Source: a virus
Taxonomy: Duplodnaviria; Heunggongvirae; Uroviricota; Caudoviricetes
Length of the DNA: 64,000 nt
Direction: 5' to 3' (one strand)
Virus record (IMG/VR): IMGVR_UViG_2939521961_000004
Made by a program: the position numbers
Shown: piece by piece, positions 55,401-61,400 of the stretch
How the letters are laid out: every line of letters starts with the position of its first letter
How positions within the stretch are numbered: position 1 is the first letter of the stretch

Positions 55401-58400
55401 ATTGTCATCACGCCTCTGTTCGGGTTGACGAAAAAGAGCGCCAGGTCCGCTGTAAAATCTGCGGTGCGGTTGTGGAGCCGTTTGACTGGATGCTCTCTGT
55501 GGCGAAAAGAGAAACCAGACTGGCAGATGATGTAAGGCTATTGCGCCAGGAGGAACAGGAAAGGCGGAAAAATATAGAAAAGTTAATTCAGATTGAACGT
55601 AACGCGAAAGCGCGGATACGCAGGGCGACAAAATCCAGAACTGAATAAATAAATTTAGCGCTGTAAATAAAATCTAATCCTGAACTGGAGGTATATTTAT
55701 GTTAAATACACAGAAAGCCATTAATGCGGAAAAATATAACGAGTGGGCAAGAAAATTCTCTGAGCAGATTTTTAAAATTACTGGCGATGAGAATGCGGCA
55801 AAAAATGAATTAGAACCGTGGACACCTGAAGGAAACGCACCAAATTATTGCTGGTGGGAGGTTGATCCGGTTGATGTTGCAAATGAAGCCATGAGTTACC
55901 ACAACGATTAATGTCAGGAGGCCGCCCGAAAGGGCGGTAGTTAAATGCGAAAGTTTAAAATAATTATTGAAACGGGAATAGCCGGTGGAGATTTCGAGGA
56001 TGAATTCGAAGTGGATGATGATGCGACGCCTGATGAAATACATGACGAAGCAAAAGATATTTTCTTTAACTACTGCAATTATTCATATCACGAAATAAAA
56101 GACGAAGAGGAAGAACAAAATGGCTGATTTTGGTTCAACTAAATACAGCGTCAGTTTTGAAGAATGGCATGAACTGTTAATGGAATATGCAGAGTTACGT
56201 GGTGGCAGTGCTGCTGATGCTGAAGCATGGCGTGATGATTATGAAGCAGGAAAAAATCCGGTCGAAGCATATTGTGATGAGTGGGGCGATGAATGAGCGA
56301 GATTGACTATCAGGCGCTGCGTGAAGCAGCAGAGAAAGCAACTAAAGGATGCTACATCGTAGGGCATACATCGGGCAATCAGCATGGGAATATAACAGGA
56401 GTTTTTGTTTGTCAAAAATGGAAAGGAGAGCCCGGTGGCGTAATTGCAGAATGTCATGTTAACTGCCTGGTTGAAACAGATGTTCAGGCTTATGCAAACG
56501 CTGAATTTATTGCTGCTTTTAATCCAAATGTTGCGCTGGCACTACTGGATGAACGGGAAGCCCAAAACAAACGAATTGCAGAGCTGAAAGCTAATCTTGT
56601 GGCGCTGGCGGCGGAGAATGCGGTAATAAAGTCTGCAATTCCAGAACCACGGGATATTGAGGACGACAATGACAATATGGATGACGTATCTCTTGCTGAA
56701 GATTTCGGGTTCAATCATGCAATAGAACGGATGAGGAGACGGATTCCTGAAACTCCGGCCACCGACGCTTTCCTGGCTGAAGTACGGGCGGGGTTGTTTA
56801 ACGAGCTTTGCGCGGCGTTTGTCAGGTACGAAAAAGTTGCAGGACTGGATGATAGCGATACAGTAACGCTTAAGGAAGCGACAGAAGCATTGCTGGATTG
56901 TGCGGAACAGCTTATCGCGCCTGAATAATTAAATTTAGTTAAAAATTTAATCCTTAACCGGAGGGATTTCTGCACCCTCAAAACATCAGGAGGCCGCCTG
57001 AAAGGGCGGTAAGAAATGACTACATTATTCAGAAAAGAATATCCGAGAAAAAGTAGAGCGACAGAATTTTTGTTTCTCATTATATTTATCGTGTTGATGA
57101 TACCGATACCCCCGCTATTACTGGTCTGGTTTATCGTGAAAATAATTGAGCCAGTTATTGAATTGTATAACGACGTGGTGTGGGCGTCGTTCAGCACACT
57201 GCACAATAAAATTAATCCGTATAAGGAAAGCTGATATGGCACTGACGAAAAAACAACGTGCAGAGCTGCGCATGAAGTTCGGCGGTCGCTGTGCTTATTG
57301 CGGCTGCGAACTTGGCGAAAAGTGGCATGCAGACCATGTAAAACCGGTCATTCGTTTTGATGGAAATATGCTTCACCAGGAACGTGACGATATATCCAAC
57401 ATGGTTCCGGCATGCCACCCATGCAATCTGCACAAGCATTGCAGTAGTCTGGAAGATTATCGGCGAATTATCAGTGATGGTCGTCGTGAATTCCTTGCGT
57501 CCGGGAAAGGCAAAGCGCTGGTTCGTATGGGATTGGTTGAAATGAAATCTGACCCAGTTGTGTTCTGGTTTGAAAAATATCAAGAAGGGGCTACGGCATG
57601 ACGACTTTTACCAGAGAGCAGTTAATAGCTCACGCAGAGGAGACTATTGAAACACAGAGACTGTGCATACCGGGCACAATCGACCATGACATCATCCGCA
57701 CATATAAGATGGATATTGCTGTTCTGGAAATCGCACTGGTATCGCTGGCAGCAGAGCCAGCCGGTAAATTGCATGAATACAAACCAGTGGGATATCAGCG
57801 TCTGGTCGATGAGTTAACCATGCTGGTAAAGCAGTTAACCTGGCAACTGAGGAAAGCGAAGCCAGACTGCAAATTACCGGATAAGGCGATGAGTTATCTG
57901 GAGCGGAACGGACTGATAAGCGTGGAGGATATTTTACGATGACCTGGCCTGAAGCATTCACAACGGTAGGAATTGCGATGGCGGTGGCGCTGGTGGTGTA
58001 TTCGATTTGCCGCTGGGGATAAATCGCCGAAAAAAGATCCCGACATAAACATGAGCCGGGATCTTTGATTTATATAGCCTACGAATCCGCCAGTAAGAGA
58101 GGGGGCGGACGGTTAATTCTAACACCGGAATGATGTGGGTAAAAGTTTATAAGAAATCGGTTTCATAACTTTGCCCACCATGATAGATACCGACAATAAA
58201 GACTTTTCTGCTATCAACGGCAAAAGCAATAATCGTTCTGTGGCGGAAATGAGTTACCCGCATCCCCTGGCGAATATCATCGCGTTTATTGCCCCGATGC
58301 GGGAATGTAGAAAACCCATCAAGATAATCAAGAAGCGCATTGGCATAATTGTCAGCAATGACGTTCCCTGCTTTCTCCGTTATATACCTGTGCAGGTTGA

Positions 58401-61400
58401 TTATTTGTTGTTCGGCCTCAGGAGTAATGATGACTTCATATGTCATGCAGATTACTTCCCGGATCGAATCGCGGCGCGAACCTGTGAAATGGAGCGTCCG
58501 TTGTTTGGATTTTCGCGGATAGAATCAAGAGAGGGGGCGGCTGAATGCGTTAACCACGCTTCGATTGCTTTATCGCGCTCATTCAGTGCGCGAAGCCCTT
58601 CACGAATGACCTCGCTTTCTGAAGCATAGGCACCGGAAGCCACACGGGCGCGCACCATGTCAGCCATTTCGTTAGTTAATGTAATGCTGAATTGTTGGGT
58701 TGTACGCATGGTAAACCTCACGGAGTAGGATAGAACACCATTCGATGATAGCACGTTGCCTGTTGACGACAACAGAAATCAGAGACAATATTGCCGCACG
58801 CCAGCTTGAACAACTGGCACCTGCTGCGCCAGCAGAGAAAACCGATGGCGCACAATACCAAACATCACAATTCTGATATCGCCCCTGCCAGCAGGCAAGG
58901 GCGGTGTTCTCACACATTCAAATATGACTGGTATCAGCACGATCCCTGCACTGAAGAACAGGCCGAATGGCTCATTCAGTGTTACCGCAGGCGCGGATGC
59001 GAGGTTAAAAAAGCCCTTAGCCTCGACTACCGTCACTGGATAATCTCCGTCAGGCTCCCTTACTCCGAACGGCCACCGCGTCCGTCCCGCACATTCCAGC
59101 AACGGATCTGGAGGTAATGTGCGGGTATTACTTCGACCTGTTCTGGTACCGGAACTCGGGCTGGTGATCGTTAAGCCGGGTCGTGAATCCATGCCGGTAT
59201 TCCACAATACCCGGGTACTGGTGGAGCCGGAACCGAAAAGCATGCGTAATCTGCCGTCCGGGGTTGTTCCTGCCGTTCGCCAGCCGCTAGTGGAAGACAA
59301 AACATTGCTGCCGTTTTTCAGTAACGCACGGGTGATTCGTGCTGCTGGTGGTGCTGGTGCATTGTCTGACTGGCTGTTGCGCCATATTAAATCCTGCCAG
59401 TGGCCACACGGCGATTATCATCACAGCGAAACCGTCATTCACCGTTATGGTACCGGCGCAATGGTGTTGTGCTGGCACTGCGACAACCAGCTGCGCGACC
59501 AGACATCCGAATCACTCGGGCAGCTTGCTCAACAAAATCTGACAGCCTGGATGATTGACGTCATACGTCACGCAATAAGTGGTGCACAGGAACGGGAATT
59601 ATCTCTGGCTGAATTATCCTGGTGGGCGGTCCGCAATCAGGTGGCGGACGCGCTACCGGAAGCGGTATTACGTCGTTCGCTGGGGTTGCGTGCGGAAAAA
59701 ATCCGCTCAATGTACCGTGAAAGCGACATCGTACCGGGAGAGCAGACCGCCACCAGCATACTGAAGCAGCGCACAAAAAATCTTGCGCCGCTGCCTCACG
59801 CTCACCAGCAAAAACCGCCACAGGAAAAGACGGTGGTCAGCATTGCCGTTGATCCTGAGTCTCCGGAATCTTTCATGAAACGACCTAAACGTCGCCGCTG
59901 GGTTAACGAGAAATACACGCACTGGGTGAAGACACAGCCGTGTGCGTGTTGTGGTAAGCCTGCTGACGATCCGCATCACCTGATTGGTCATGGTCAGGGG
60001 GGAATGGGGACAAAATCTCACGATATTTTCACGCTACCGCTGTGTCGGGAGCATCACAACGAGCTTCATGCGGATCCGCTGGCGTTCGAAGAAAAGCATG
60101 GTTCTCAGGTTGATTTAATTTTTCGTTTTCTTGATCACGCCTTTGCAACTGGCGTGCTTGGGTAAAAGAGGTGACTGATGCTCATAGATTTGGTTTTACC
60201 TTACCCGCCGACGGTGAACACTTACTGGCGACGCCGTGGCAGCACATATTTTATCTCGGAGGAGGGAAAGCGTTATCGCCGGGCTGTGGCGCTTATTGTT
60301 CGCCAGCAGCGGCTGAAATTAAGCCTGTCCGGAAGGCTGGCGATAAAGGTGATTGCAGAGCCACCGGATAAGCGCCGCCGTGACCTGGACAACATTCTGA
60401 AAGCACCGCTGGATGCGCTGACGCATGCGGAAGTGCTCATTGATGACGAGCAGTTTGATGAAATCAATATTGTGCGCGGTCAGCCAGTATCTGGTGGACG
60501 GCTGGGTGTGAAGATTTACAAAATTGAGAGTGAGTGAGCGTAAATATGATATATCCGGAAATTACAGGCAAAAGCGGCGAACATTTACGCCTGAACACGC
60601 TGGAAGCAGTCTGGATCCAGGGGAAATTACGGATGTGGGGGCGGTGGTCGTATATCGGTGGGGGTAAATCCGGAAATATGTTTAACCGGTTACTGGTTTC
60701 GAAAAAGCTGACGAAAACAGCAGTTAATGAGGTTTTACGCAGCATGAAGAAATCCGGGCTGGAAAAACCGGAACTTGAGGCATTTTTTCGGGATATGACC
60801 AGAGGGAAGCAGAAGAGCTGGTTGTCACATTGTACAGACACAGAGGCGTTGATTATTGATCGCGTTATCAGTGAGGTGCTTGGGGAATATCCCGGGCTAA
60901 TCAATATTCTCCGGCAAAGGTACGAAGGACGGGGAATGAGTAAGAGAAAAATGGCAGAATGTTTAAATCGTACTCACCCGGAATGGTGTTTCAGCACATG
61001 TGAGAAACGTATTGCAGGTTGGTTAGCCGTGGCTGAACACATGCTTTATGTACCTATGCACGATTCATTTCGATAAAAAAAGCTTGCTTTTTTACGCAGA
61101 AACAGCTTGAATTCCTGTAAGCTTCGCAAAGCTGTATCGCGAGGCGAAATGCAAGTTTTTTCGCACAAGGAAGCCACCGGAAGGTGGTTTTTTTGTGTCC
61201 GTAATATACAGCAGCGCAATAAATTCGCTGGTGGTTATTAATACCGTTCTTTCAGCTTGCTGGCTTTTTCGACAAGAGTTATTGGTGTGTCACGTTAACC
61301 GAAAAAGGGAAAAAGACATGCTGAAACAGCAGGATATGACCGAAACCGCCAGAGTGGTGTTTAATGAATTAAGCGTTACCGAACCGGCGACAGTCGGGGA

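Follow-up and report, generated by a model that had tools for sequence, protein, structure and literature searches.

The DNA analysed here, called the window throughout, is the whole stretch of 64,000 nucleotides of IMG/VR virus record IMGVR_UViG_2939521961_000004, in which two lambda-like prophages lie in tandem. Our subject is a pair of small genes on the minus strand of the second of these, prophage B. The upstream gene, parD (58452..58709), encodes a ribbon-helix-helix antitoxin of 85 amino acids (aa), and the downstream gene, parE (58147..58446), a toxin of 99 aa belonging to a ParE subfamily; both start with ATG, and five nucleotides (nt) separate the stop codon of parD from the start codon of parE, so that the antitoxin comes first. 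A longer parD starting with TTG at 58772 is offered by the open reading frame (ORF) listing, but the 85-aa form is the one used by RefSeq and by all homologues, and a Shine-Dalgarno sequence, GAGG (58716..58719, minus strand), conserved in the aligned alleles, stands 6-7 nt upstream of its ATG. The exact proteins are named ParD family antitoxin (WP_001260977.1, of the same length and annotation) and RelE/ParE family toxin (WP_000220601.1) in RefSeq, and the GenBank record of phage ArgO145 lists a putative toxin and antitoxin.

The original prediction, which read 58147-58709 as a RelE/ParE toxin with a ribbon-helix-helix antitoxin on the reverse strand, had named profile searches as the place where it could fail, and these supported it both at curated thresholds and in the toxin and antitoxin families of PHROG. 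The product of parE matched PF05016 (ParE_toxin) with 40.4 bits (curated cut-off 23) over profile positions 1-89 of 89 and phrog_5232 ('toxin') with 2.4e-43; NCBIfam contained no model matching it. The product of parD scored 32.1 bits against PF03693 (curated cut-off 21), 53.8 bits against TIGR02606 (curated cut-off 46.2) and 1.7e-56 against phrog_6494 ('antitoxin'). A sequence search of the PDB with ParD recovered seven solved ParD-family chains at E-values of 4e-4 to 6e-3, with matches in ParD1 3kxe, ParD2 7b22, 6x0a, 8c24 and 5ceg, and the search for antitoxin homologues returned 2657 proteins. In the AlphaFold2 (AF2) model of ParD (predicted local distance difference test score, pLDDT, 89.6) helices span residues 13-24, 31-66 and 74-84, a ParD-like layout of a long helix followed by a C-terminal helix, and the N-terminal ribbon-helix-helix overlays the ParD chains of 8c24, 7b22 and 7r5a, among them M. 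tuberculosis ParD1 and V. cholerae ParD2, with a target-normalised TM-score (TMt) of 0.80-0.83 and a root-mean-square deviation of 1.1-1.7 Å; the Foldseek E-values for ParD were weak (at least 0.056) because the domain is short. By its family profiles, its N-terminal ribbon-helix-helix and its C-terminal region, parD encodes a ParD-family antitoxin.

For the toxin, a match to PF05016 alone does not discriminate between RelE and ParE, since this family spans RelE-like ribonucleases (RNases) and ParE-like gyrase poisons alike, and we therefore aligned its homologues (26 sequences) and predicted its structure. The AF2 model (pLDDT 84.6) is a helical hairpin (helices 9-26 and 28-46) with a three-stranded sheet (61-67, 71-78 and 81-89). 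When it was compared with solved structures by Foldseek, the top 23 matches were all ParE-type, with query-normalised TM-scores (TMq) of 0.62-0.71, and included Mesorhizobium ParE3, PfiT, P. aeruginosa ParE, PrpT, M. tuberculosis ParE1 and ParE2, V. cholerae ParE2, O157 ParE2 and Caulobacter ParE1 (nearest PDB entries: 6x0a/5ceg for ParE3, 6xrw, 8c24, 7r5a, 5cw7 and 3kxe), whereas the RNase toxins YoeB, YafQ, RelE and HigB reached only 0.37-0.48. A profile built from the toxin alignment and run against all PDB sequences found, at E<=10, no RNase toxin and only four chains, all of ParE type (6x0a at 1.8e-5, 5ceg, 7ycs and 8c24); the single sequence gave one marginal match, again 6x0a (E=0.011). 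BLASTP found no significant match of parE to either the ParE2 of prophage A or RelE, and hhalign, run with the toxin alignment against the ParE2 of prophage A and against K-12 RelE, returned probabilities below 1% for both because the alignment is shallow (effective number of sequences, Neff, 1.9). An exhaustive search with the toxin yielded 1145 cluster representatives at E<=1e-3. On plasmids of Rhizobium, Paraburkholderia, Pseudomonas and others, the 14 relatives listed were 45-53% identical to the toxin and annotated as RelE/ParE toxins, and in most of these 14 a ParD gene lay under the same match. By profile, by fold and by its operon with parD, the toxin belongs to the ParE branch of the RelE/ParE superfamily.

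The pair is flanked by what appear to be its own expression signals. A consensus scan found a promoter-like site on the minus strand (58745..58772) with a -35 element TTGTCG (58772..58767), a 16-nt spacer and an extended -10 element TGcTATCAT ending at 58745, 36 nt upstream of the parD ATG. Over the -35 element lies the palindrome CTGTTG-acga-CAACAG (58760..58775), which is the obvious candidate for a ParD operator. In five alleles, two of them only 86% identical overall, both promoter hexamers, the Shine-Dalgarno sequence and the palindrome arms TGTTG/CAACA are invariant. Downstream of parE, folding of the strands revealed a hairpin (58030..58066) with a 12-bp stem, a 10-nt loop, a U tract on the minus strand and an A tract on the other side, and hence it reads as an intrinsic terminator in both directions, common to parDE and the converging rightward genes; a simple terminator scan had missed it since the loop exceeds the limit of that scan. 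Rfam reported no RNA family in 54000..62000 and hence no sign of an RNA antitoxin or small RNA (sRNA) in or beside the cassette. Between E. coli alleles the ratio of nonsynonymous to synonymous substitution rates (dN/dS) was 0.06-0.12 for parE and 0.06-0.21 for parD, which shows both genes to be under purifying selection. That the two frames are chance ORFs is ruled out by the profile scores, the dN/dS values and the conserved expression signals. A further small ORF on the plus strand (57939..58022), encoding a hydrophobic peptide of 27 aa, overlaps (ATGA) the stop codon of the preceding gene for the 114-aa hypothetical protein, and its end lies shortly before the two-way terminator. Pfam gave no convincing match to this ORF, and RefSeq does not annotate it. 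In O111, where another gene precedes it, it accompanies the cassette, and in SCU-171 it lies at a separate place.

Every neighbouring gene is on the plus strand. The cassette lies directly upstream of the hypothetical-DUF968-rusA-Q genes, with transcription running in the direction opposite to theirs. The G+C content of parE is 42%, compared with 53-54% in the genes to its right. Among 5426 complete E. coli genomes, 365 have the cassette, in each case on the chromosome, whereas matches to some part of the region 57000-60200, in which DUF968 and rusA lie, were found in 4583. With a promoter-like site and terminator, an orientation opposite to its surroundings, a G+C contrast and a presence/absence polymorphism, parDE shows the features of a moron.

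The neighbours of the cassette change from genome to genome, with at least four different left or right contexts. HNH and hypothetical genes precede it in pig strain EC581, DUF551 in O111:NM and a different minus-strand ORF in strain SCU-171; to the right, EC581 continues with the hypothetical gene, DUF968, RusA and Q, and both O111:NM and SCU-171 with the hypothetical gene, DUF968, RusA and an antitermination protein. In the Stx2a phage ArgO145 the left side again carries HNH and hypothetical genes, and the right side an anti-repressor gene towards the integrase, which is a different part of the phage map. The promoter-side junction (58792..58802) was the same in every context examined: ArgO145 and the Stx2a phages with an orphan parD are similar to the window up to 58792, prophage A becomes similar again at 58795, and the four sequences compared at this point have CGCACG (58797..58802) in common before they divide into two types of right flank. 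On the toxin side, similarity ends at 58147 or 57939. These comparisons indicate that the cassette moves independently as a unit.

A version of the locus with parD and no parE was found in 45 phage records, mostly Stx2a-converting, and in 37 complete E. coli genomes, with Stx2a phage LC727840.1 and E. coli O43 RM10042 as examples. It corresponds to 58433..58792 of the window, similarity ending about 4-5 codons into parE, and the place of the toxin is taken by an ORF of 93 aa, which has a lipoprotein-like signal and no Pfam match, and by a HigA-like helix-turn-helix (HTH) gene for which no toxin partner is obvious. These loci retain the promoter and the palindrome, and in the orphan ParD itself residues 1-47, the DNA-binding domain, are identical in amino acids, all 12 changes falling in residues 48-85, for which dN/dS is about 0.25. 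The ParD-only locus may have been left by a deletion, or its antitoxin may be retained for cross-talk with a resident parDE. Over the coding sequence, the parDE of ArgO145 is identical to that of the window in nucleotide sequence; its promoter region has the sequence type of the orphan loci, suggesting that recombination took place directly upstream of parD in this phage. The RefSeq record of ArgO145 (NC_049918.1, 4331..4588) annotates the antitoxin as a shortened protein of 68 aa (207-bp coding sequence), although the full 85-aa frame is intact.

Taken together, we read the locus as a self-contained type II ParD/ParE cassette, a moron, or optional cargo, that has a predicted promoter and terminator of its own and is carried by a lambda-like prophage in the early-right region, and put the probability of this at roughly 85%. 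As judged from the sequences, the two genes very probably form a functional toxin-antitoxin pair of the ParDE type. If the pair behaves like other members of the family, ParD dimers would bind the palindrome over the -35 element through their ribbon-helix-helix and repress the operon, and the C-terminal helices of ParD would wrap around ParE and neutralise it. ParD would be proteolytically unstable, so that a stop in its synthesis, through loss of the DNA or shut-off of transcription, would free ParE, which would then poison DNA gyrase and lead to arrest or death of the cell. The most likely net effect would be retention of the prophage segment (addiction), and a contribution to the exclusion of other phages is possible. 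Gyrase poisoning, autoregulation by ParD and the maintenance of a prophage by a ParE system are described in PMC6368863, PMC10776004 and PMC8706911. By analogy, gyrase is slightly favoured as the target of the toxin, and retention rather than defence as its main role may be regarded as an even chance.

Several observations weigh against this picture. The toxin shares no more than 16-24% identity with solved ParE toxins, and its subfamily has an invariant stretch of its own in the 26-sequence alignment, RGNxRDDIRxGxRxTHFRHRT, so that the target could differ; for both reasons the gyrase step is the weakest link of the mechanism. The number of promoter-like sites in the region does not exceed the expectation from shuffled sequence, and the case for the promoter therefore rests on its position and conservation. 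The palindrome could have arisen by chance, as a 6-nt inverted repeat is not rare in 140 bp. Neither toxin nor antitoxin matched a PADLOC defence model at E<=0.01. Finally, the integrase gene of prophage B (42889..45221) is interrupted by an insertion sequence (IS) of the IS3 family (transposase about 43591..44804), according to the annotation of a genome of 99.9% identity that was placed on the window without gaps. Excision is therefore probably blocked and prophage B probably defective, and a retention role would not currently be needed in this strain; the present benefit of the pair may lie elsewhere, for example in phage exclusion.

This leads to the possibility, which we consider about half as probable as retention, that the pair serves mainly to defend against phages, through abortive infection or superinfection exclusion: when an infecting phage shuts off host transcription, ParD would decay and ParE would arrest the cell before the phage cycle is completed. 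Such a view concerns the role of the pair and not its identity, and is compatible with its assignment as a toxin-antitoxin system. A moron with its own predicted transcription, opposed to the early operon of the phage, would be expected to be expressed in the lysogen, and the cassette shifts between prophage contexts as defence cargo does. The 45 ParD-only phage records point in the same direction, because an antitoxin whose DNA-binding domain is identical might neutralise a resident parDE or repress it, although an orphan ParD is equally explicable as a deletion remnant. The PADLOC result speaks against a defence role, and so does the fact that none of the papers retrieved in our literature searches ties this pair to defence. 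These searches covered the RefSeq accession, toxin-antitoxin genes of ArgO145 and the ParE/ParD systems of O157 prophages, and yielded no experimental study of the pair. Extending the idea to a contest between phages, in which the resident parDE aborts incoming infections and ParD-only phages, with their diverged toxin-binding tail, counter by neutralising or silencing ParE, makes it improbable in our view. Alternatively, antiterminated rightward transcription upon induction could run head-on into the parDE promoter, cut the supply of ParD and free ParE during lytic growth.

It is still less likely that the toxin is a ribosome-dependent mRNA endonuclease like RelE instead of a gyrase poison. 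The shared family PF05016 would allow it, and the invariant stretch is strongly basic and contains histidines (R51, R55, R59, R63, H66, R68, H69 and R70), which could in principle bind RNA. However, RelE, YoeB, YafQ and HigB fit the model far less well than the ParE toxins do, the profile search of the PDB returned no RNase structure at E<=10, and the partner is an antitoxin of the ParD family, not RelB. That parDE is a decaying, non-functional remnant, as the defective state of prophage B and the toxin-less versions in 37 E. coli genomes might suggest, is the least probable of these alternatives and was set aside on the profile scores, the dN/dS of 0.06-0.21 and the invariance of promoter, Shine-Dalgarno sequence and palindrome across alleles, both frames moreover being intact and of full length as in homologues from other genera, and the functional Stx phage ArgO145 having the same nucleotide sequence.

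Among solved structures, both proteins of the ParD/ParE cassette are closest to ParD3-ParE3 of Mesorhizobium opportunistum (5CEG; chimeric complex 6X0A). ParE3 was matched by the toxin profile at E=1.8e-5, ranked first in Foldseek and is 24% identical to parE, ParD3 was matched by the parD sequence at E=0.0025-0.0056, and gene order as well as the architecture of ribbon-helix-helix and C-terminal helices are shared. In contrast to parDE, this system is chromosomal or plasmid-borne in an alphaproteobacterium and not phage cargo, identity is limited to 20-24%, and the THFRHR hairpin motif is found only in the parE subfamily. Similar folds are seen in ParD1-ParE1 of Caulobacter crescentus (3KXE), ParD2-ParE2 of Vibrio cholerae (7R5A, 7B22) and ParDE1 of M. 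tuberculosis (8C24), with TMq of 0.68-0.69 for the toxins, although these are only 17-20% identical to parE; TIGR02606, matched by parD, is named 'antidote_CC2985' after a Caulobacter gene. Members of this group are presented as gyrase poisons with operons autoregulated by ParD in PMC6368863, PMC10776004 and PMC8706911. A prophage-borne combination of a ParE-type toxin with a ribbon-helix-helix antitoxin is known from ParESO-CopASO of the Shewanella oneidensis prophage CP4So (7ETR), and PMC8706911 reports that it maintains the excised prophage; it stands further from parDE in fold (rank 41, TMq 0.55) and differs in its CopA-type antitoxin and in the type of phage.

Two further systems resemble the cassette by their genomic setting. 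The paaR2-paaA2-parE2 locus of E. coli O157:H7 prophage CP-933P (5CW7) likewise places a ParE-fold toxin in a lambda-like prophage of enterohaemorrhagic E. coli, but it comprises three genes, its antitoxin PaaA2 (PF21217) has no DNA-binding domain, regulation is left to a separate HTH protein, and it lies in the immunity region and not on the nin side. Prophage A of the window carries such a locus, and with about 20% identity and no significant BLASTP match between its ParE2 and parE, cross-neutralisation between the two systems appears unlikely. In the K-12 prophage Qin, relBE-hokD occupies the same slot as parDE, directly upstream of rem (a small ORF), ydfU (DUF968) and the Q antiterminator, but in the same direction as the DUF968 gene, whereas parDE is opposite. 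RelE is an mRNA interferase with RelB as its antitoxin. Given relBE-hokD in Qin, toxin-antitoxin cargo at this slot has long been known, and parDE, already annotated, is an ordinary example of a very familiar class of systems at an established cargo site. The finding illustrates the swapping of cassettes at fixed positions in mosaic phage genomes; beyond such bookkeeping it has little significance and holds no surprise for the specialist. If the pair is active, it would add a phage-borne ParDE subfamily, with a toxin as distant from solved ParE toxins as stated above (16-24% identity), to studies of gyrase poisoning and toxin-antitoxin specificity, and the ParD-only phages would provide a natural test of antitoxin cross-talk.

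The wider surroundings of the locus can be described from genomes that are nearly identical to the window. Its near-perfect matches are complete genomes of enterohaemorrhagic E. coli, and 37577..64000 aligns without gaps and with 99.9% identity to strain 02E060 (NZ_AP027197.1); over 57000..60200 the best database matches reach 99.4% identity, not 100%. Prophage A extends from about 1 to about 42000, and prophage B from near 42900, the place of its split integrase, to beyond the end of the window. To the left of parDE, prophage B carries a DUF4014 membrane protein (57016..57234; Pfam DUF4014 5.7e-22), an HNH endonuclease (57236..57601; Pfam HNH 2.2e-6) and the 114-aa hypothetical protein (57598..57942), all on the plus strand, with PHROG matches to phrog_2118 and phrog_660. 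A comparison of the two prophages found no counterpart of this block (57016..57942) in prophage A, in agreement with the original prediction, which had listed an HNH endonuclease and a small membrane protein at 57016..57601 as specific to B. The block adjoins the toxin-antitoxin genes in ArgO145 and EC581, but not in O111 or SCU-171. To the right, also on the plus strand, follow a 90-aa hypothetical protein (58845..59117; phrog_1212, function unknown), DUF968 (59119..60165; Pfam 8.2e-77), RusA (60178..60537; Pfam 1.8e-16) and a Q-like DUF1133 protein. The pair had been placed directly upstream of a DUF1364/DUF968/rusA block, of which DUF968 and RusA were borne out; the DUF1364 label for the ORF upstream of DUF968 was dropped in both prophages, as the 90-aa ORF gave no Pfam match at E<=1.

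The alignment of the two nin regions agreed with the proposal that a second shared slot holds different toxin cargo in the two prophages. Shared flanks are formed by 54435-54520 of B, equivalent to 6488-6573 of A, and by 58795-60524 of B, equivalent to 8610-10348 of A (90.6% identity). Between them lie 2.0 kb in A and 4.3 kb of accessory genes in B, which end with DUF4014, HNH, the hypothetical gene and parDE. According to the RefSeq record of a 99.7%-identical genome, from which the cargo annotation of prophage A was taken, this interval of A contains an alpha/beta hydrolase on the minus strand (6959..7732; weak Esterase match) and a hok/sok type I toxin-antitoxin locus on the plus strand (sok 8168..8342, Rfam RF01794, 107 bits; hokD 8337..8492, HOK_GEF 1.2e-23), consistent with the hok and esterase genes expected there. 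The hokD gene is of the type found in relBE-hokD of K-12 Qin.

The other shared slot is on the immunity side. In prophage A it holds paaR2-paaA2-parE2 (1080..1987, minus strand), left of the immunity genes, with a toxin (1080..1367) that matches ParE2 of PDB entry 5CW7 at 3e-36, an antitoxin that matches PF21217 (PaaA2) at 5.6e-19, and an HTH regulator upstream. The description of parDE as the second ParE/ParD-type pair of the window thus needs an amendment, since the pair itself stands and the first ParE is partnered by PaaA2 and not by a ParD. In prophage B the corresponding slot is occupied by higB-higA (49921..50585, plus strand), beside the repressor gene, with a HigB_toxin match (PF09907, 4.8e-33) and an HTH antitoxin. 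Each prophage therefore holds two toxin-antitoxin loci at two shared slots, namely paaR2-paaA2-parE2 and hok/sok in A, and higBA and parDE in B.

Some minor observations concern these surroundings. RefSeq labels the PaaA2 antitoxin of prophage A as 'RelB family'. At the hok locus of prophage A the sok/leader region is intact, and just downstream of hokD (locus 8168..8582, plus strand) a sub-threshold match to the sRNA isrK (27 bits; gathering score 50) overlaps the hok terminator region. In prophage B, an ead/Ea22-like gene (56293..56928, plus strand) forms a full ORF of 211 aa in the window (Pfam 3.5e-39), and the annotations of O26:H11 11368 and strain 02E060 give its counterpart as a pseudogene truncated at the C terminus.

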